64,000 nt of DNA from Gaiellaceae bacterium (lineage in GTDB: Bacteria; Actinomycetota; Thermoleophilia; Gaiellales; Gaiellaceae), in the NCBI GenBank assembly GCA_035556515.1, contig DATMEO010000087.1, positions 902-64,901 of the forward strand, in the 5' to 3' direction. Position numbers and translations under genes: made by a program. Shown piece after piece: positions 21,464-32,506 of the stretch. The notes beneath the pieces were generated by a model. The model worked only from the letters and a program-made list of their open reading frames with translations. It did no database searches and was not told the DNA's origin. Position 1 is the stretch's first letter, and every line of letters starts with the position of its first letter.

Positions 21464-22719
21464 AGCTTCCAGACGTTCTCGCTCGTGCGGCCCCGCTCGC
21501 CGGTCGCGTTCCGGAAGTCCACGATCACCGGACCGCTGTCGACGAGCGCCTCGTAGTCGATGCCGCGGTGGTCGGTCACGATCGCGATCGCGTCGAAGTT
21601 GCCCGGCTCGAGCGGCACCGAGCTCAGTCCGTACTCCGGCAGCTCGGCGACGTGCAGGTCGTGGTAGGAGACGTTGGCGCCGCCGGTCTCCAGGAGCTCG
21701 ATCAGCTTCAGCGCCGGGCTCTCGCGCATGTCGCCGATGTTCGGCTTGTACGCGACGCCGAGCACGAGCACCTCCGAGCCCTTCAGCGACTTCTGCTTGC
21801 CGTGGTTCAGCGCCTGCGAGATCAGCGAGCGGCAGTGCCAGGGCATGTTCTCGTTCACCTTGCCCGCCAGCTCGATGAACTCGGTGTAGAAGTCGAACTC
21901 GCGCGCCTTCCAGGTCAGGTAGAACGGGTCGATCGGAATGCAGTGGCCGCCCAGACCGGGGCCGGGCTTGAAGCTCATGAACCCGAATGGCTTCGTGGCG
22001 GCGGCGTCGACGACCTCCCAGAAGTCGATCTTCATCCGCTCGCAGAGCTGCGCCATCTCGTTCACGAGCGCGATGTTGACCGACCGAAAGATGTTCTCGA
22101 GCAGCTTCGTCAGCTCCGCCGACTCGGGCGAGGTGACCCGGTGGACGGTGTCGACGGCGGAGCCGTACAGCTCGGCAGCGCGCTCGGTGCATGCGTCGGT
22201 GATCCCGCCGACGACCTTCGGCACGTTCTTCGTCGTCCAGTCCTCCCGTCCCGGGTCGACCCGCTCGGGTGAGAACGCGAGGTGGAAGTCCTCACCGACC
22301 TTCAGGCCGGTGGCCTCGAGCCGCGGCAGGATCTCCTCGCGCGTCGTGCCCGGGTACGTGGTCGACTCGAGCACGACGAGGTGGCCCTTGCGCAGCCGCT
22401 TCGCGATCTCCTCGGTCGCGCTGTTGACGATCGAGAGGTCCGGCTCGCGCTGCTTCGAGAGCGGGGTCGGCAGCGCGATCAGGATCGCGTCCGCCTCGCG
22501 CAGCTCGTCGTAGTCGGTCGTGGCACGGAGGTCGTGGTCGTCGACGAGGCGCTTGAGCACCTCCGAGGGCACGTCCTCGATGTAGCTTTCGCCGCGGTTC
22601 AGCTGCGCGACGCGGCCGGCGTCGCGGTCGACGAGGAGCACGCTGCGGCCTGCCTCGGCGAACACCTGGGCAAGCGGGACGCCGACGTAGCCGGCTCCGA
22701 CGATGGCGACGTCGGTCAT
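21460..22719 (-). CDS. nucleotide-sugar (UDP-N-acetyl-hexosamine) 6-dehydrogenase, WbpA/WecC-like
   Basis: VAIVGAGYVGVPLA Rossmann fold, catalytic Cys context GLGGHCIPIDP, UDPG/MGDP dehydrogenase layout. ATG 22719. Confidence 0.9.
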   Translation of the reverse strand: MTDVAIVGAGYVGVPLAQVFAEAGRSVLLVDRDAGRVAQLNRGESYIEDVPSEVLKRLVDDHDLRATTDYDELREADAILIALPTPLSKQREPDLSIVNSATEEIAKRLRKGHLVVLESTTYPGTTREEILPRLEATGLKVGEDFHLAFSPERVDPGREDWTTKNVPKVVGGITDACTERAAELYGSAVDTVHRVTSPESAELTKLLENIFRSVNIALVNEMAQLCERMKIDFWEVVDAAATKPFGFMSFKPGPGLGGHCIPIDPFYLTWKAREFDFYTEFIELAGKVNENMPWHCRSLISQALNHGKQKSLKGSEVLVLGVAYKPNIGDMRESPALKLIELLETGGANVSYHDLHVAELPEYGLSSVPLEPGNFDAIAIVTDHRGIDYEALVDSGPVIVDFRNATGERGRTSENVWKL

Positions 22720-22791
22720 CGGCGCGGAATCGTACAGAGGCGGCCCGATCACGCGCCCACCCGTCCTGGGAGGATTGTCGCGAAGCCTGGC

Positions 22792-22797
22792 TACAAT
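22792..22797 (+). promoter_or_regulatory. possible -10 element (TACAAT) for tRNA-Lys
   Basis: TACAAT ends 10 nt upstream of the tRNA 5' end. No convincing -35 element. Confidence 0.25.
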
Positions 22798-22807
22798 CCT
22801 TCGCCGC

Positions 22808-22880
22808 GGGCCGTTAGCTCAGCTGGTAGAGCAGGGGACTCTTAATCCCAAGGTCGTAGGTTCGATCCCTACACGGCCCA
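22808..22880 (+). tRNA. tRNA-Lys (anticodon CTT)
   Basis: Manual cloverleaf, 73 nt. Acceptor GGGCCGT/ACGGCCC, D-arm GCTC-AGCTGGTA-GAGC, anticodon loop CT-CTT-AA, variable loop AGGTC, T-arm GTAGG-TTCGATC-CCTAC, discriminator A. CCA is not encoded. Confidence 0.93.
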
Positions 22881-22894
22881 TCGCGCAACGCTGC

Positions 22895-25774
22895 GTGACC
22901 ATCGCCTTGGCACTCGGAGAGAACCAGGAGCAGGACTCGGGCGGCGACGGCGCCGCGTTCCCGGCGCGGGGCGTGGGGCTCGACGCCGTGCTCGGCAGCA
23001 TCGGGGACGGGATCACGGCCCAGCGCGCAGACGGGTCGCTCGCGTACGCGAACGATGCCGCGGCGCGGCTGCTCGGGCTCGAGTCGGGTGACGAGCTGCT
23101 CGGGCTCTCCGGCGTCGAGCTGATGCAGCGCTTCCTCGTCATCGGCGAGGATCGCGAGTTGCTCCCCGCCGACAAGCTTCCGAACCGACGCGCGATCGCG
23201 TCGGGACGGCCGGAGGAGGGGCTCGTCGGCTACCGGCTGCTCCCGGACGGCGAGGAGCGCTGGTCGTTCGTCCGCTCGACGCCGATCGTCTCCACCGAAG
23301 GCGCCGTCGAGCACGTGATCAACGTCATCCAGGACGTCACGTCCGAGCGGGCGGCCCACGAGCGGGCGCGGCTCGTCGACGAGACCGGCGCCGTCTTCGC
23401 TGCCTCGATCGACATTGAGGCGACCTTCGACGCACTGGCTGAGCTGCTCGTGCCGCGCTTCGCCGACTACTGCATCGTCGACATGGTCGACGACGGTCGG
23501 CTGCGCCAGGTCGCGATCTCGCACCGCACGCCGGAGCGGGAGCAGTTGCTGCGGGAGCTGCGGGAGCGGTACCCGCCGGGCGCGAACCCTGCGCATCCGG
23601 TCTCCGAAGTACTGAGCACCGGCGAGCCGTACCTCGTCGAGGACGCGCGCGTTGAGGCGCTCTCCCACGCCGCCGTCGACGAGGAGCACCTCGCGCTCTA
23701 TCGCCGGCTGGAGGCGATGTCGTACATCGTCGTGCCGCTCGAGGCACGGGGCCGGATGCTCGGCACGATCTCGCTCGGGACCGGTGAGTCCGGACGCCGC
23801 TTCGGCGAGCTCGACCTCGCGCTCGCGATCGAGCTCGCGCGGCGCGCGGCGCTCGCGATCGACAACGCGCTTCTCTTCGGCGCCGCGCAGCAGTCGTACG
23901 CGCAGCTGGACACGTTGCTCGTCTCGGCGCCGGTCGGGATCGGCTTCTGGGACCGCGACCTTCGTTTCGTCCGGGTCAACGACGCGCTCGCCACGATCAA
24001 CGGGATCCCGCCCGAGGAGCACGTCGGCCGCGACCTCGCCGACGTGGTCGGTGAGCTCGGGCCTGTGCTCGTCCCGCTCTACCGGCGCGTGCTCGAGACG
24101 GGCGAACCGGTCGTGCACACCGAGTCGACCGACGACGCGGCCCTGCAGATGGGCGAGCGGCGCCACTGGCTCTCGAGCTACTACCCGGTGCGCACGCCCG
24201 ACGGCGAGGTGATCGGGATCGGCGCGGTGATCATGGAGATCACGGACCGGAAGCGGGCCGACGATCGCCTGCGCCTGCTGGCGGAGGCCGGCGAGCTCTT
24301 CTCGACGTCGCTCGACCAGGACGAGATCGCATCGCGGATCGCGCATGTGGGCGTGCCACGGCTGGCCGACACGTGCAACATCTTCCTCCTCCGCGACGGC
24401 GTGCTCGCCCGGGTCGCGTGCGTCAGTGCCGACCCCGAGGTCCAGCCGCTGCTCGAGTCGCTGCCGACGACGTTCGCGCTCGCAGGCGACTCGGGGCGGA
24501 TCGCCCGCGTCTTCCAGGCGTCCGAGCCGCTCCTGCTGCGCTCCCTTCCCGAGGAGTACCTCGACGAGCTCGAGCGGTTCGGCGCCGACAGGCCCACGTT
24601 CGAGCGGATCGGGACGCGCTCGCTGATGCTGGTTCCGATCGTCGCCCGCGGCCAGACCCTCGGCATCCTCACGCTCGGATCGCGGCTGCCCGAGCGCTTC
24701 GACGAGCACGATCTCGACCTCGCGCAGGAGCTCGCCGGCCGCGCCGGCGTCGCGATGGACAACGCGCGGTTGGTCGAGGAGCTCCGGCGGCGCGCCCAGT
24801 CCGCGCAGGCGCTCGAGTTCGTCGGCGACGGCGTCTTCCTCGTCGGGCGTGACGGCGTCGTCCTGCTCTGGAACCCGGCCGCCGCGCGCATCACCGGCCT
24901 GCCCGAGGAGCGGATCGTCGGTTCGCCCGCGTCTGACGCGCTGCTCGGCTGGCCGCTCGGCCAGGGCGAGCGGCCGCAGACGTTCCCGGTCGACGCGCCT
25001 CACGGGGAGCTGTGGCTGTCGCTGACCGCGGCCGAGTTCCCGCACGGCACCGTCTATGCGTTCCGTGACCTCACCGAGGAGCGTGCGGTCGAGCAGCTGA
25101 AGAGCGACTTCGTCTCGACTGTGTCGCACGAGCTGCGGACGCCGCTCGCCGCGATCTACGGCGCCGCGATGACGCTCCAGCGCAGCGACGTCGAGCTCAA
25201 CGACGTCCAGGAGGCCGGGATGCTCGGGGTGATCTCGGGCGAGTCGGAGCGGCTCGCGCGGATCGTCAACGACATCCTGCTCGCGAGCCGGCTCGACTCC
25301 GGCGCCGCGACCGTCGAGATCAGCCGCACCGACGCGGGAGAGCTTGCCCGCGGCGTCCTCGCGGCCGCCGAGGCGCACCTGCCGGCGGACGTCGAGCTCG
25401 TGCTGAGTGTGCCCGAGCGGGGGCCGCAGGTCGCCGCCGACCCGGACGGGCTGCGGCAGGTGCTCGTCAACCTGGTCGAGAACGCGGTCAAGTACTCGCC
25501 GAACGGTGGGCGTGTCGAGGTCGAGCTGGAGCCGACCGACGGCCGCGTCCGCTTCGCCGTACGCGACCGCGGCCTCGGCATCCCCGCCTCCGAGCACGAG
25601 CGGATCTTCGAGAAGTTCTTCCGGCTCGACCCGAACCTGTCGCGCGGCGTCGGCGGCACCGGGCTCGGGCTCTACATCTCGCGCGAGATCGTGCGCCGGA
25701 TGGGCGGCCGGATCCGTGTCGAATCGGAGCCGGGCCGCGGCTCGACGTTCTCGTTCGAGCTGCCGCTCGCCTAG
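22895..25774 (+). CDS. cytoplasmic multi-sensor histidine kinase (PAS-GAF-PAS-GAF-PAS-HisKA-HATPase)
   Basis: H-box FVSTVSHELRTPLAAIYG; N box LVNLVENAVKYS; G boxes DRGLGIP and GTGLGLYISREIV. No TM helices, and no response regulator in the window. The start is uncertain (GTG 22895, TTG 22907 or later). Confidence 0.9.
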   Translation: MTIALALGENQEQDSGGDGAAFPARGVGLDAVLGSIGDGITAQRADGSLAYANDAAARLLGLESGDELLGLSGVELMQRFLVIGEDRELLPADKLPNRRAIASGRPEEGLVGYRLLPDGEERWSFVRSTPIVSTEGAVEHVINVIQDVTSERAAHERARLVDETGAVFAASIDIEATFDALAELLVPRFADYCIVDMVDDGRLRQVAISHRTPEREQLLRELRERYPPGANPAHPVSEVLSTGEPYLVEDARVEALSHAAVDEEHLALYRRLEAMSYIVVPLEARGRMLGTISLGTGESGRRFGELDLALAIELARRAALAIDNALLFGAAQQSYAQLDTLLVSAPVGIGFWDRDLRFVRVNDALATINGIPPEEHVGRDLADVVGELGPVLVPLYRRVLETGEPVVHTESTDDAALQMGERRHWLSSYYPVRTPDGEVIGIGAVIMEITDRKRADDRLRLLAEAGELFSTSLDQDEIASRIAHVGVPRLADTCNIFLLRDGVLARVACVSADPEVQPLLESLPTTFALAGDSGRIARVFQASEPLLLRSLPEEYLDELERFGADRPTFERIGTRSLMLVPIVARGQTLGILTLGSRLPERFDEHDLDLAQELAGRAGVAMDNARLVEELRRRAQSAQALEFVGDGVFLVGRDGVVLLWNPAAARITGLPEERIVGSPASDALLGWPLGQGERPQTFPVDAPHGELWLSLTAAEFPHGTVYAFRDLTEERAVEQLKSDFVSTVSHELRTPLAAIYGAAMTLQRSDVELNDVQEAGMLGVISGESERLARIVNDILLASRLDSGAATVEISRTDAGELARGVLAAAEAHLPADVELVLSVPERGPQVAADPDGLRQVLVNLVENAVKYSPNGGRVEVELEPTDGRVRFAVRDRGLGIPASEHERIFEKFFRLDPNLSRGVGGTGLGLYISREIVRRMGGRIRVESEPGRGSTFSFELPLA

Positions 25775-25897: not shown

Positions 25898-26119
25898 CTA
25901 ATACCGCGGACCGTCCTCGACGTATGTCGTCCGGCGCCGCTCGCCGGCGAATCCGCCCCACGACGACCAGAAGATCATCGAGAGCACGAGGCCGAGAGCG
26001 CCGACGACCATGAGGATGACGCCGATCGTCTGCAGCTCGAGACCGGAGACCGAGGCGTTCACGGCCCAGGTCAGCATCGCTCCGACTGCGATGAGAAAGA
26101 TGCTGACTCCGAGACCCAT
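25898..26119 (-). CDS. small two-TM membrane protein (DUF6458-like)
   Basis: Strong RBS AGGAGGACAAGA then ATG 26119. Sequence MGLGVSIFLIAVGAMLTWAV...IGVILMVVGALGLVLSMIFW. Confidence 0.6.
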   Translation of the reverse strand: MGLGVSIFLIAVGAMLTWAVNASVSGLELQTIGVILMVVGALGLVLSMIFWSSWGGFAGERRRTTYVEDGPRY

Positions 26120-26231
26120 TCTTGTCCTCCTGTTGGCGGGGGATTGGCGCGATTCGTGTGCCCGGATGTCCGGGTCACCTATCGAACGTTCGAGGCGCCG
26201 GATCGGGTACGGGTTATGTAGGCTCGCCGCG

Positions 26232-27220
26232 GTGCGCAGGGGCTCGATTGTCCGCATCACGATCTACGGCGTCCTCGCGGGAATCCTCGCGTCGCTGGTC
26301 GCCGTCCTCGTCCCCTGGCTGCCCACCTCGGCCTCCGAGGAGATGGACCGGATCGAGTTCACATTCTGGTTCACGACCATCATCTGCATCGCCGTCTTCG
26401 CGGTCGTCGCGGCCGCGATCATGTACTCCGTCCTCAAGTTCCGCGTCCACCCCGAGGACGAGTCGGACGGGCCGCCGATCCACGGGCACACCGGCCTCGA
26501 GATCGTCTGGACGGCGATCCCGGCAGTGCTCGTGACCGCGATCTCGATCGTCAGCGCCGTCGTGCTGGCGCAGAACGACAACGCCGGGCCGAACCCGATC
26601 CGGATCGCGGTGACCGCACAGCAGTTTGCGTGGAAATTCGAATACCCGGGCGAGCCGAGGCTGACCGCCGGCGAGCTCGTCCTGCCAGTGGACAGGCCGG
26701 TCAAGTTGACGCTGCGCTCGCTCGACGTGATCCACTCGTTCTGGGTGCCCGAGTTCGGGCAGAAGTCGGATGCCGTGCCCGGGATCGAGACGACGCTCGT
26801 GATCACCCCGAACCGGACGGGCGAGTTCTCGATCATCTGCACCGAGCTCTGTGGGCTCGGCCACCCGACGATGCGCGCGCCGGTGCGTGTGGTCGATCAG
26901 GCCGCGTACGACGAGTTCCTGGCCGGCTCGGCCGGCTCGGGGGGACAGGACGACTCCGGCGAGGCGGTCTTCGAGACGGCCGGCTGCGGCGGCTGCCATG
27001 CCTTCGCGCCTGCGGGCACCGACGCGCAGGTTGGCCCCGGTCTGGATGCGATCGACCCCGGCGGACAGCCGCTCGAGGACTTCTTGCGCGAGTCGATCGT
27101 CGATCCGAACGCGGTGCTCGCGACCGGCTTCCAGCCTGACGTGATGCCGGCGACCTACGAGAGCTCGCTTAGTGACGAGCAACTCGACGCGCTCGTGCAG
27201 TATCTGGTTGAGGGGCAGCA

Positions 27221-27224
<4 letters not shown>
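26232..27224 (+). CDS. ctaC: cytochrome c oxidase subunit II with fused C-terminal cytochrome c domain (caa3-type)
   Basis: Two N-terminal TM helices. CuA site HSFWVPEFG...CTELCGLGHPTM. C-terminal heme c motif CGGCH. GTG 26232 chosen; the exact start is uncertain. Confidence 0.9.
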
Positions 27225-29175
<1,951 letters not shown>

Positions 29176-29179
<4 letters not shown>

Positions 29180-30024
29180 GCGGCCCGCGCAAGATCCTCG
29201 TCGTCGCGAACGAGACGCTCACCGGCGACGAGCTGCTCGACGCGGTGCAGGCGAAGGTTCGGGACTCCGAGACGCTCGTGGTCGTGATCGCGCCGGTGAA
29301 CGCACCGCGCGAGGGGTACGTCGTCTACGACAACACCCGTCGCGCAGCGGCCGGCCGGCGGCTCGACCGGACGCTCACGCGCTTTCGCGAGGCCGGCATC
29401 GCGGCCACCGGCCACGTCGTCGACAACGACCCGCTCGCCGCCGTGAAGGACGCGATCGCGATCGAGGAGCCCGACGAGCTGATCGTCTCGACGCACCCGG
29501 AGGCGACGTCCGGCTGGCGGCGGCGCAACCTGCTCGAGGAGATCCGCAAGGCGGCCGGCGCGCTCCCGGTCGAGCACGTCGTCTCCGACGTCGCCGCGCG
29601 GGTCGGCGCGCAGAACATCCTCGTCGTCGCGAACGAGACGGTGCTCGGCGAGCCGCTGCTCGAGCGCATCCGCGAGAAGGCGCGTGCCGGGCGCACGAGT
29701 TTCCTGATCATCTCGCCGCAGAGCGACCCGGAGCAGGGCTCGCACCCCGAGGCGGAGCGGCGGCTGCGCAAGGTGCTGACGCAGCTGCGTGCGGAAGGGA
29801 TCGAGGTGCACGGCCAGGTCGCTCACCCCGATCCGTACACCGCCGCGATGCACGCCGTTCGCGACGAGCGGGTCGATGCGATCCTCGTCTCCACCTTCCC
29901 GGAGCAACGCGGCTCGTCGTGGCTTCGTCGCGATCTCGTCGGCAGGCTCACGAGCGAGGCGAAGGTGCCGGTCGAGCACGTCGTCGTCGAGCCCAGCAAC
30001 GCCGAAGACGAGGTTCACGCATGA
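29176..30024 (+). CDS. soluble protein made of two tandem copies of an uncharacterised ILVVANET-type domain (Rossmann/USP-like by pattern)
   Basis: ATG 29176 overlaps the ctaD stop (ATGA), and its own stop overlaps the ctaE ATG (ATGA). Internal duplication: KILVVANETLTGDELL...DELIVSTHPEATSGWRRRNL...PVEHVV, then NILVVANETVLGEPLL...DAILVSTFPEQRGSSWLRRDL...PVEHVVV. Confidence 0.8.
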
Positions 30025-30620
30025 GCGCGCACGCCGAGCATCACCACGGCCCCCCGGTCGCGAACCAGAGCTCGCGCGTCAGCTCGACCGTGCTCGGGAT
30101 GTTCCTCTTCATCGCGTCGGAGGCGATGCTCTTCGGCTCGTTCTTCACGGCCTACTTCTTCGCCCGCGTCGTCAATCCGGACGCGCAGCCGTGGCCGCTG
30201 CCGCCGTTCCATCTCCCCGTCTTCGTCGCCGGCGTCAACACGGCGGTGCTGCTGGCGTCGAGCTTCACGATGCACTGGGCGCTGCAGTCGATCAAGCGCG
30301 GCAATCGCGCCGGCATGAAGGCGGGTCTCGTGCTGACCCTGCTGATGGGGCTCGCGTTCCTGCTGACCCAGATGCTCGAGTACGCGCGAATCGGCTTCAA
30401 CCCGAGCGATGGCGCGTTCGGATCGATCTTCTTCGGGCTCACCGGATTGCACGGGGCGCACGTCTTCGTCGGGCTGACGCTGCTCACGGTCGCGACCGTG
30501 CGCGCCTTCCGCGGCCACTTCACGCCGGAGCACCATCACGGCGTCGAGCTTCCGGGAATCTACTGGCACTTCGTCGACGTAATGTGGATCGTGGTGTACG
30601 CGACGATCTACCTTCTCTGA
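30021..30620 (+). CDS. ctaE: cytochrome c oxidase subunit III
   Basis: FIASEAMLFGSFFTAYF, GLHGAHVFVG, YWHFVDVMWIVVY. Confidence 0.93.
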   Translation: MSAHAEHHHGPPVANQSSRVSSTVLGMFLFIASEAMLFGSFFTAYFFARVVNPDAQPWPLPPFHLPVFVAGVNTAVLLASSFTMHWALQSIKRGNRAGMKAGLVLTLLMGLAFLLTQMLEYARIGFNPSDGAFGSIFFGLTGLHGAHVFVGLTLLTVATVRAFRGHFTPEHHHGVELPGIYWHFVDVMWIVVYATIYLL

Positions 30621-30627
30621 GGTACTG

Positions 30628-31275
30628 ATGGCACGGAACCCGTTTCGCAGCGAGGCCGAGGCATACCGCTTCCTGCTGCTGACAGTCGGGTACTTCGCGC
30701 TGATCGTCGTCGGCGCCTCGATCGCGACGTGGCTCGGCGTCGTCGTCTTCGCCGTGCTGACCACGGCGGCGGTCGTGCTCTGGCTCCGCTCGCGCTCGAA
30801 CGAGCCGGTGCTGCGGCCGGCGGTTCCGACACGGTCGGCGGCGGCAGACGAGCGGCGGATCCTCGTGATCGCAAACGAGACCGTCGGCGGGTCCGAGCTG
30901 CTGGCGATCCTACGCCGGAAGGCGGAAGGGGTGAACGAGCAGGTGCTCGTCGTCTGCCCGGCGCTCAATTCGCAGGTGCGGACGTGGGCGTCGGACGAGG
31001 ACGGTGCGCGCGCGGCCGCTCAGCAGCGGCTGGACAAGAGCCTGGCGCGGTTGCGCCGGGACGGAGTACAGGCGCAGGGTGAGGTCGGCGACGGCGATCC
31101 GCTGCAGGCGATCGAGGACGCGCTGCGCACGTTCGGCGCGGACGAGATCGTGATCTCGACCCATCCCGAAGGCCGTTCCAACTGGCTCGAGCGAAACGTC
31201 GTCGGCTCCGCCCGTGACCGTTTCGACGTCCCGATCACGCACGTGGTCGTCGATCTCGAGGCGAGCGTCTCCTAG
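30628..31275 (+). CDS. membrane protein: two N-terminal TM helices fused to a third copy of the ILV(V/I)ANET-type domain
   Basis: Starts 7 nt after ctaE. TM helices YRFLLLTVGYFALIVVGASIATW and GVVVFAVLTTAAVVLWL. Then RILVIANETVGGSELL...DEIVISTHPEGRSNWLERNV...PITHVVV. Confidence 0.8.
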   Translation: MARNPFRSEAEAYRFLLLTVGYFALIVVGASIATWLGVVVFAVLTTAAVVLWLRSRSNEPVLRPAVPTRSAAADERRILVIANETVGGSELLAILRRKAEGVNEQVLVVCPALNSQVRTWASDEDGARAAAQQRLDKSLARLRRDGVQAQGEVGDGDPLQAIEDALRTFGADEIVISTHPEGRSNWLERNVVGSARDRFDVPITHVVVDLEASVS

Positions 31276-31438: not shown

Positions 31439-32140
31439 CTAGCCGCTGGTGCTGGCGACGACGTAGTCGGCCACCGCGTCGATCTGCTCCGGCGTGTACG
31501 AGTCCTTGAAAGCAGGCATCGCGCCCTGGCCGTTCGTGACGCGGTCGACCACGAGCTCCTTGGACGGCTTCGAGTCGTCGAGACTTGGCCCGACGCTGCC
31601 GCTCGCGTTCGCGGCCTCGAGCGCGTGGCAGCCGCCACAGCCCGCCTCGGCGAAGATCGCCTCGCCGTCCGCGGTCTCGCCGCCCTGCTCTTCCGGGCCG
31701 CCGCCGGTGGTCGTGCCGCCGCCGGTCTCGGTACCGCTGCCGCCGCTGGCTCGGACGGGCAACCCGGCGACCGAAGCGACGTACGCCGCGACAGCGTCCG
31801 CGTCGTCACCGGTGACGAGATCTGCCGGCATGCCGGGCGAACCCGTATTCGGCGTCTCGATCGGATAGGCGATCTGATCGCGGACGACCGCCCGGATCGT
31901 CCCCTCGCCGAGCCCGTCCTCGCGCGACTGCAGGAACGCGTTGTCGAGGTTCGGCCCGATCACGCCCTTCGTGCCCGCGTCGGCGAGCACGTGGCACGTG
32001 CCGCACCGCCCTTCGCCGGCGAAGAGCTCCTTGCCGCGGGCGGCGTCGCCGGCGTCGGTGAGCCCGCCCGAGCCGCAGCCCGTCGCGGCTAGGGCCGCGA
32101 GCAGGACCGCGCAGGCGCCGAGGAGCCCGCGCAGCCTCAC
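31439..32140 (-). CDS. diheme class I cytochrome c lipoprotein
   Basis: GTG 32140. Lipobox LAALAATGC. Two heme-binding motifs, CGTCH and CGGCH, each followed by a candidate Met ligand region. Confidence 0.85.
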   Translation of the reverse strand: MRLRGLLGACAVLLAALAATGCGSGGLTDAGDAARGKELFAGEGRCGTCHVLADAGTKGVIGPNLDNAFLQSREDGLGEGTIRAVVRDQIAYPIETPNTGSPGMPADLVTGDDADAVAAYVASVAGLPVRASGGSGTETGGGTTTGGGPEEQGGETADGEAIFAEAGCGGCHALEAANASGSVGPSLDDSKPSKELVVDRVTNGQGAMPAFKDSYTPEQIDAVADYVVASTSG

Positions 32141-32506
32141 CTAGCCGGTGGACCCCGTCGCGGCCGATCCCGCCCCGAGCGCCGCCTCACGCGTCGGATG
32201 GATCGTGAAGACACGGTCGAGGCCGGTGATCTCGAAGATCTTCGTGATGTTGCGGTCGCTGCAGACGAGCGACAACTGGCCCTCGTTCGTGCGAAGCCGC
32301 TTCACGCCGCCGACGAGCACGCCGAGCGTGGTCGAGTCGATGAAGGTCGTGTCGCTGAGGTCGACGACGACGTCGCGACCGCCCTGGTCGATCACCTCGA
32401 GCAGCTGCTGCTTGAACTCCGGCGCGGTGTACAGGTCGACCTCGCCCGCAAGGGAGATCACGTACTGGCCGTCGCCCAGTTTCTCGGTCTTGACGTCGAA
32501 ATTCAT
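32141..32506 (-). CDS. STAS-domain anti-sigma factor antagonist (SpoIIAA/RsbV-like)
   Basis: 121 aa. VISLAGEVDLYTAPEFKQQL...VVVDLSDTTFIDSTTLGVLVGG contains the conserved phosphorylatable Ser/Thr context (DST). Confidence 0.9.
   Translation of the reverse strand: MNFDVKTEKLGDGQYVISLAGEVDLYTAPEFKQQLLEVIDQGGRDVVVDLSDTTFIDSTTLGVLVGGVKRLRTNEGQLSLVCSDRNITKIFEITGLDRVFTIHPTREAALGAGSAATGSTG

Follow-up and report, generated by a model that had tools for sequence, protein, structure and literature searches.

The 64-kb window analysed here (64,000 nucleotides of contig DATMEO010000087.1 from a metagenome-assembled Gaiellaceae genome of the class Thermoleophilia, Actinomycetota) carries an operon for a cytochrome c oxidase in which two additional genes, here called X and Y, accompany the genes for the core subunits. 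The order, read directly from the sequence, is ctaC-ctaD-X-ctaE-Y, all on the + strand, and the oxidase is of the caa3 type because the ctaC product carries a C-terminal cytochrome c domain. X encodes a tandem of two domains with the fold of the universal stress proteins (USPs), and Y encodes a third copy behind a hydrophobic N-terminal segment. Our proposal is that X and Y probably act in the cytoplasm as accessory subunits dedicated to the A-family (caa3) oxidase of the Thermoleophilia. Physical association with the enzyme is the best-supported reading because the insertion point of X is kept in three orders of one class, because stop and start codons overlap, and because X also occurs as a natural fusion to subunit I.

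Three domain copies in the oxidase operon

Gene X (29176..30024, + strand) encodes 282 amino acids (aa) and gene Y (30628..31275, + strand) encodes 215 aa. An original prediction, made from this DNA, had placed two tandem copies of a domain of roughly 140 aa in X and one copy in Y, and comparisons with BLASTP and with a hidden Markov model (HMM) of the family bear it out. The family HMM locates X domain 1 (X_N) at ~29182-29604, X domain 2 (X_C) at ~29608-30015 and the Y domain at 30844-31266; these domains of ~140 aa are exactly three in the window, with none besides. By BLASTP, X_N is 38% identical to X_C (E 5e-22) and 41% identical to Y (E 2e-31), and X_C is 39% identical to Y (E 2e-26). The gene order and the coordinates that the prediction gave for X and Y agree with our reading of the sequence, and every motif that it listed is present.

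X is translationally coupled to the genes on both of its sides. The ctaD stop and the X start overlap by 4 nt in an ATGA at 29176-29179, the X stop and the ctaE start overlap by 4 nt in an ATGA at 30021-30024, and Y starts at 30628, 7 nt past the ctaE stop; both overlaps and the 7-nt gap had been foreseen and are read in the sequence. A further ATGA, at 27221-27224, joins the ctaC stop to the ctaD start. A consensus scan for promoters and terminators inside the operon found sites in no greater number than expected by chance.

Linkage of X to the oxidase genes

The prediction had named a lack of conserved linkage to oxidase genes in other genomes as part of what would refute it, and the linkage is clearly conserved: ctaD-X-ctaE is kept in the Gaiellales and the Solirubrobacterales, and X and CtaD are fused in the Miltoncostaeales. 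Profiling across the Actinomycetota had been proposed; the class Thermoleophilia is the level at which the linkage is shown. A scan of a genome collection gave 80 species-level loci, all of them from Gaiellales-type metagenome-assembled genomes (MAGs). When CtaC, CtaD, X, CtaE and Y were mapped, the order ctaC-ctaD-X-ctaE-Y was found in every one of the 80 loci that was long enough, with X_N identities down to 54%; almost all of them have Y after ctaE. Two MAGs labelled 'Acidimicrobiia bacterium' (L007 and L015) have the same operon order and an X that is 84% and 75% identical, respectively, to that of the window, which suggests mislabelled bins rather than an occurrence in another class.

For the metagenome scan the query was the most divergent two-domain subfamily, marked by the motif P-Q-N-x-P-K/R-x-G-Y-V-I-Y-D, sharing no more than 48% identity with any X from the Gaiellales, and chosen blind to its genomic context. 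In 80/80 metagenome loci of this subfamily, X is flanked by ctaD upstream and/or ctaE downstream where a flank exists, and never by another gene. An exact-sequence look-up placed subfamily members in Solirubrobacteraceae and Conexibacter. Overlap of stop and start codons is common to both sets: the 4-nt ctaD/X overlap is present in 61/80 Gaiellales-type and 38/63 Solirubrobacterales-type loci, and X and ctaE overlap by 4 or 1 nt in 60/80 and 48/63, respectively.

The gene after ctaE is Y in 1/80 of the Solirubrobacterales-type loci. In one locus of this order, L124, the gene after ctaE encodes the assembly factor Caa3_CtaG. L124 also carries, upstream, a paralogous subunit-I gene (30-731) followed by a UbiA-like gene (751-1662), which by its sequence would be of the CtaB type, and no X-like gene is found there. 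X appears to be tied to one specific oxidase, since the paralogous subunit-I gene has no X after it. The second CtaD-like gene of L124 lies ~3 kb upstream of the X operon, and a similar arrangement is seen in L121, L125, L126, L131, L132, L140, L143 and L145.

Fusion of X to subunit I

Miltoncostaeaceae proteins carry both domains as an in-frame extension of the CtaD C-terminus. A search with a family member that begins with CtaD sequence (P0292) returned many proteins with Pfam COX1 plus both domains, which NCBI names as subunit I of the oxidase of Miltoncostaeaceae/Thermoleophilia. There are at least 23 distinct CtaD-X fusion sequences, all with one common junction, and P0499 (921 aa) is a full-length example. 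In contig DNA of an NCBI MAG (L083), the frame runs unbroken from the CtaD transmembrane helices through ...GVPGARHAVVFAPDEIGGGELTEHEKRTIVVVANET... to the end of domain 2; ctaE and then a cytochrome c gene follow the fused ctaD-X, and Y is missing from the locus. Conserved co-occurrence (160 loci in two orders, mostly with overlapping stop and start codons) and fusion with a core subunit are generic marks of an accessory subunit, and X has both.

Apparent fusions of X to CtaE were also seen (P0421, 480 aa; P0260, P0275, P0313, P0330 and P0380). We do not rely on them as a second Rosetta stone, because the locus that was examined, L082, is from an assembly with a fragmented ctaD, and one indel in the shared stop/start would be enough to fuse the two genes. 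L081 and L082 both stem from ENA assemblies and have ctaD broken up into two or three called genes, a sign of indel errors; apparent fusion proteins from data of this kind, such as P0421, may be artefacts. The apparent fusions in L081, P0269 and P0250 were treated with the same caution as L082 and P0421.

Fold and nearest relatives

Foldseek searches with AlphaFold models bear out the prediction's guess that the fold is Rossmann/USP-like (HUP). The model of X (pLDDT 83.5) has two strand-helix repeat units and that of Y (pLDDT 73.6) has a strand-helix repeat domain, as in an alpha/beta fold of the HUP type, which is defined by five parallel strands alternating with helices. The top matches are USPs, at probability 1.0, and include UspE, Rv2623, TTHA0350, TeaD, MJ0577 and YnaF. 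X is matched best by the tandem USPs UspE, Rv2623 and TTHA0350 (E 1e-7 to 1e-5) and by PDB entry 2IEL, and also matches the tandem USP-like C-terminal domains of the NKCC/KCC transporters. Y is matched best by 2IEL, then by TeaD, MJ0577, YnaF and further USPs.

Sequence profiles scarcely recognise the domain. Against Pfam Usp (PF00582; gathering score 24 bits), the score is 23.9 bits for Y and 19.8 bits for X, and X_N alone has no match; one Solirubrobacterales X scores 23.0 bits, TT0030 (the protein of PDB 2IEL) has no match, and 7/26 diverse family members match at E < 0.01. No Pfam model is above threshold for the repeated domain of X or Y, and NCBIfam gave no relevant match for either protein, in line with the prediction, which had recognised neither as a named oxidase subunit or assembly factor.

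The nearest relative of solved structure is TT0030 of Thermus thermophilus (2IEL, 'hypothetical protein'), which hmmsearch with the family profile finds at E = 6e-17 over its full length (profile positions 8-140 against chain residues 3-136). It was reached only through the family profile, because a phmmer search of PDB with the single sequence of X gave chance matches only (homeobox proteins, E > 0.3). 2IEL is also a leading Foldseek match for single domains: those of X align with it at target-normalised template-modelling scores of 0.73-0.76 and that of Y at 0.65-0.67, with identities of 25-31%. TT0030 has motifs similar to those of X and Y (VVAHRT and STLP...S-R-W), but it is a free-standing single domain of 138 aa, and H-R replaces N-E in its first motif. 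A literature search on 2IEL/TT0030 found no paper. The domain had been predicted to be uncharacterised, and this holds in part: the solved homologue is itself uncharacterised, but the domain is not wholly unseen, since 2IEL has been solved and NCBI names Y 'universal stress protein'.

The tandem USPs (UspE of E. coli and Salmonella, Rv2623 of M. tuberculosis and TTHA0350 of T. thermophilus) share with X the arrangement of two USP-fold domains per chain. They are only 12-19% identical to X, their domains are oriented differently (global root mean square deviation ~19-20 Å), and, unlike X, they are free-standing stress proteins encoded outside respiratory operons. Rv2623 and TTHA0350 bind ATP through a G-2x-G-9x-G(S/T) motif, which X lacks.

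Conserved residues

The canonical USP ATP motif, G-2x-G-9x-G(S/T) after strand 4, was not found in any of the three copies. The prediction had noted the absence of the classic UspA motif; in its stead is S-T-(H)-P ... S-x-W, and each of the three copies has V-S-T-H-P-E-x-x-S-x-W-(L/R)-x-R after strand 4. The family has its own set of motifs, namely ANxT, P, R, DP, STxP, SxW and H. Conservation of A11, N12, T14, P40, R62, G74, G79, D85, P86, S105, T106, P108, S112, W114, P131 and H134 (X numbering) was compared across seven classes of domain: D1, D2 and Y of the Gaiellales, D1 and D2 of the Solirubrobacterales, and D1 and D2 of the Miltoncostaeaceae. They are ~95-100% kept in the five Gaiellales and Solirubrobacterales classes, largely kept in Miltoncostaeaceae D1, and largely lost in Miltoncostaeaceae D2, where P40, R62, G74, G79, D85 and P131 remain. 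S-T-x-P ... S-x-W is conserved across the three orders.

The AlphaFold model of X places N12 and T14 after strand 1, P40 at the end of strand 2, D85-P86 after strand 3, S105-T106-x-P108 at the end of strand 4 with S112 and W114 just after it, and H134 in strand 5. We take the loops that carry these residues to be topologically equivalent to those that hold ATP in canonical USPs, presumably as in the MJ0577-ATP structure, and use the equivalence as a lead only. We think that the conserved polar set (N12, T14, R62, D85, S105, T106, S112, W114 and H134) may form a small-molecule pocket or a docking surface in the modelled fold, because several of these residues fall in the loops after beta-strands 1 to 4, which we take to be the nucleotide-holding loops of MJ0577.

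The membrane part of Y

Y begins with the motif MARNPFRSE; a hydrophobic stretch, likely a hairpin, and a linker then lead to its single TT0030-like USP-fold domain. The N-terminal motif is conserved as M-R-N-P-x-R-S-E-x-x-A-F and is followed by a hydrophobic stretch of 39 residues (residues 15-53). In 19 divergent proteins of the Y type, polar or charged residues, Gly or Pro occupy the middle of the stretch, and for this reason it is likely a two-helix hairpin with both of its ends in the cytoplasm. The two transmembrane helices predicted for Y thus fit the sequences of the homologues, but AlphaFold gives a single continuous helix (residues 9-57), and the hairpin is likely rather than settled.

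Y is also where a subunit IV was predicted to be, directly downstream of ctaE with a 7-nt gap. In Bacillus-type ctaCDEF operons, ctaF, for subunit IV, follows ctaE. Subunit IV of the CtaF type (COX4_pro, Cyt_c_ox_IV and subunit IV of the Thermus caa3 oxidase) resembles Y in this gene slot and in being a small membrane anchor. The mitochondrial supernumerary subunit COX4 resembles Y in having a membrane anchor plus a domain beyond the membrane; COX4 is membrane-anchored, and its matrix-side domain is implicated in ATP/ADP control. Unlike Y, neither the CtaF-type families nor COX4 has a 140-aa USP-fold domain. Neither Y nor 16 Y-type hairpins matched Pfam COX4_pro (PF03626) or Cyt_c_ox_IV (PF12270), and a profile of the Y hairpin matched no oxidase chain in PDB, so that on sequence grounds we reject the hairpin as a known subunit IV. 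With the hairpin as its tether, Y seems to be an addition specific to this lineage.

Size and architectures of the family

Among 1.84 billion representatives at 50% identity, 5138 clusters match the TT0030-like family at E <= 1e-3, and 2386 do so at E <= 1e-10. Besides single domains of ~150 aa, the Y-type hairpin plus domain and the X-type two-domain proteins, three further architectures were found: the domain with a membrane segment and a cupredoxin (P0339), the domain with C-terminal multi-helix membrane modules (P0321, P0333, P0353 and P0371), and the domain with an unrecognised soluble domain of ~100 aa that has a conserved RLYHA...YEEA motif (P0334, P0360, P0363, P0383 and P0388). The fusion to a cupredoxin, a blue-copper domain, is a second tie of the USP-fold domain to respiratory electron transfer. 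Neither X nor TT0030 had a tblastn match in plasmids, and a single-domain alignment scan of viral contigs found nothing.

Discussion

If X and Y are accessory subunits, as we consider probable, X would be a pseudo-dimer made of two tandem copies of a divergent USP-fold domain, lying on the cytoplasmic face of the oxidase beside the C-terminus of subunit I, which it would also bind in species where the two genes are separate. In structures of A-type oxidases the C-terminus of subunit I is cytoplasmic, and a soluble USP-fold tandem on that side agrees with this because the C-terminus is the site at which the domains are fused. Y would be anchored to the membrane portion of the enzyme through its two-helix hairpin and would add the third copy of the domain. 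The domains have lost the ATP glycine motif of the USPs and retain a strictly conserved polar set, and the module may tune or stabilise the oxidase from the cytoplasmic side.

Regulation or stabilisation from that side is suggested by precedent among the Foldseek matches. TeaD (of the teaABCD operon for a TRAP transporter of Halomonas), the USP domain of KdpD and the C-terminal domain of the NKCC/KCC transporters are, like X and Y, cytoplasmic modules with the USP fold that are co-encoded with, or covalently joined to, a membrane machine. All of them are regulatory or scaffolding modules; TeaD binds ATP, and the title of PDB 7ji4 gives c-di-AMP as the ligand of the KdpD USP domain. X and Y differ from them in their partner, a proton-pumping haem-copper oxidase.

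Several points weigh against the proposal that X and Y are oxidase subunits. Both the genome and the metagenome scans were seeded with X, and the linkage counts cover X-carrying loci only. The domain itself, judged by its sequence relatives, does not seem to be oxidase-specific, because the family is large and has many architectures beyond oxidase operons. Y is not a universal component, since it is present in a single one of the Solirubrobacterales loci and missing from the Miltoncostaeaceae locus. Finally, membership in the operon, taken alone, would equally fit an assembly factor.

A possible but rather doubtful alternative is that X and Y are purely structural, serving oxidase dimerisation or as a supercomplex tie without ligand sensing, with Y as the subunit IV of this lineage. 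USP domains usually dimerise, and here they could form X_N:X_C and Y:Y pairs; Y occupies the ctaF slot with a conserved membrane hairpin, the ATP motif is lost, and domain 2 decays once the module is fused. However, the invariant polar residues N12, T14, S105-T106-(H)-P108, S112 and W114, as placed in the model, would resemble a binding site more than a generic dimer interface, and the Y hairpin has no similarity to any known subunit IV.

We consider it unlikely, and less likely than a purely structural role, that X and Y serve subunits I and III only transiently, in assembly or maturation (holding CtaD or CtaE while haem a or copper is inserted, for instance), and are not stable subunits. The permanent fusion to CtaD in the Miltoncostaeaceae is hard to square with a factor that departs once its work is done. 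We know of no oxidase assembly factor with a USP fold, and neither Pfam nor NCBIfam matches X or Y to an assembly-factor family. Tight translational coupling would suit a co-translational chaperone as well as a subunit, both genes are encoded within the structural operon, and the position after ctaE is held by Caa3_CtaG in the Solirubrobacterales locus L124.

That X and Y are just universal stress proteins of the ordinary kind, which share a transcript with the oxidase and act elsewhere or as general stress or nucleotide-binding proteins, would account for the USP fold, the 'universal stress protein' label that NCBI gives Y and the many architectures of the large family outside oxidase operons, but it is quite improbable given that three orders share the insertion point between ctaD and ctaE, where stop and start codons overlap, that X is covalently joined to subunit I in one order, that the canonical ATP motif is absent, and that X, missing from the paralogous subunit-I gene of L124, is specific to one oxidase.

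One bolder form of the accessory-subunit proposal is conceivable, though we would not bet on it. The X tandem might be a ligand-controlled gate over the cytoplasmic proton-entry region of subunits I/III, in which a re-tooled pocket would sense a nucleotide, a second messenger or a redox metabolite and so adjust respiration to the energy state of the cell. It would then be an independently evolved bacterial counterpart of the allosteric ATP/ADP control that is attributed to matrix-side supernumerary subunits of the mitochondrial oxidase. Direct allosteric control of the oxidase has been discussed mainly for the mitochondrial enzyme.

Bacterial haem-copper oxidases are usually described as having three to four membrane subunits and no sizeable cytoplasmic part. 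In the Thermoleophilia, ~400-500 residues of conserved cytoplasmic protein are built into the oxidase operon, and if X and Y are true subunits the known architecture of A-type oxidases is extended. USP-like modules on membrane proteins are already known. To our knowledge, however, neither the TT0030-like subfamily nor a haem-copper oxidase with such a module attached has been described, and a literature search on a USP module together with a cytochrome oxidase operon or the Thermoleophilia found no paper. The Gaiellales and Solirubrobacterales are very abundant, and dominate many soil surveys. The proposal, if true, would give a first functional anchor for the uncharacterised TT0030-like branch of the USPs, in all its 5138 clusters at 50% identity, and a tractable system for communication between a USP-fold module and a respiratory enzyme, for which cultured Conexibacter, Solirubrobacter and Gaiella exist.

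The genes have gone largely unremarked. The genome paper of Gaiella occulta lists the oxidase as Gocc_0001, Gocc_0002 and Gocc_0004 and skips the gene in the X position without comment. Databases name X- and Y-type genes 'hypothetical protein' or 'universal stress protein' or, spuriously, 'GABA permease' and 'phosphopantetheine adenylyltransferase'; the present assignment corrects the annotation of genes that are now hypothetical or spuriously named.

Other genes of the locus

Pfam domains confirm the core oxidase genes of the window. ctaC (26166..27224, + strand) encodes subunit II, with COX2_TM, COX2 and Cytochrom_C; its start is uncertain and is either the ATG at 26166 or the GTG at 26232. 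ctaD (27221..29179, + strand) encodes subunit I (652 aa; COX1, 515 bits, residues 124-565), with a C-terminal tail that ends ...GVPGARHAV.... The protein is long, with an N-terminal extension of ~120 aa that has hydrophobic stretches before the COX1 domain, which starts at residue 124. ctaE (30021..30620, + strand) encodes a short form of subunit III (199 aa; COX3, 151 bits, profile positions 77-255), and the extra N-terminal segments of CtaD might replace the first helices that the short subunit III lacks.

Just upstream of the operon is an open reading frame (22703-25774) for a PAS/GAF/PAS histidine kinase. ARAGORN finds a tRNA-Lys (CTT) gene at 22808-22880 (+ strand), inside the 5' end of this reading frame, and the real start of the kinase gene is placed downstream of the tRNA for that reason. 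This large sensor kinase could be a regulator of the oxidase operon. A gene for a small DUF6458 membrane protein (25898-26260, - strand) is divergent from ctaC, lies directly upstream of it and overlaps the most upstream of its candidate starts.

Downstream, a gene for a di-haem cytochrome c with two cytochrome c domains (31439-32140, - strand) is convergent with Y and lies just beyond it. The cytochrome may be the electron donor of the X/Y-linked oxidase. An opposite-strand match of cytochrome c type recurs downstream in many related loci. The cytochrome c gene is adjoined by one for a STAS domain protein of the anti-sigma-factor-antagonist type (32141-32506, - strand).

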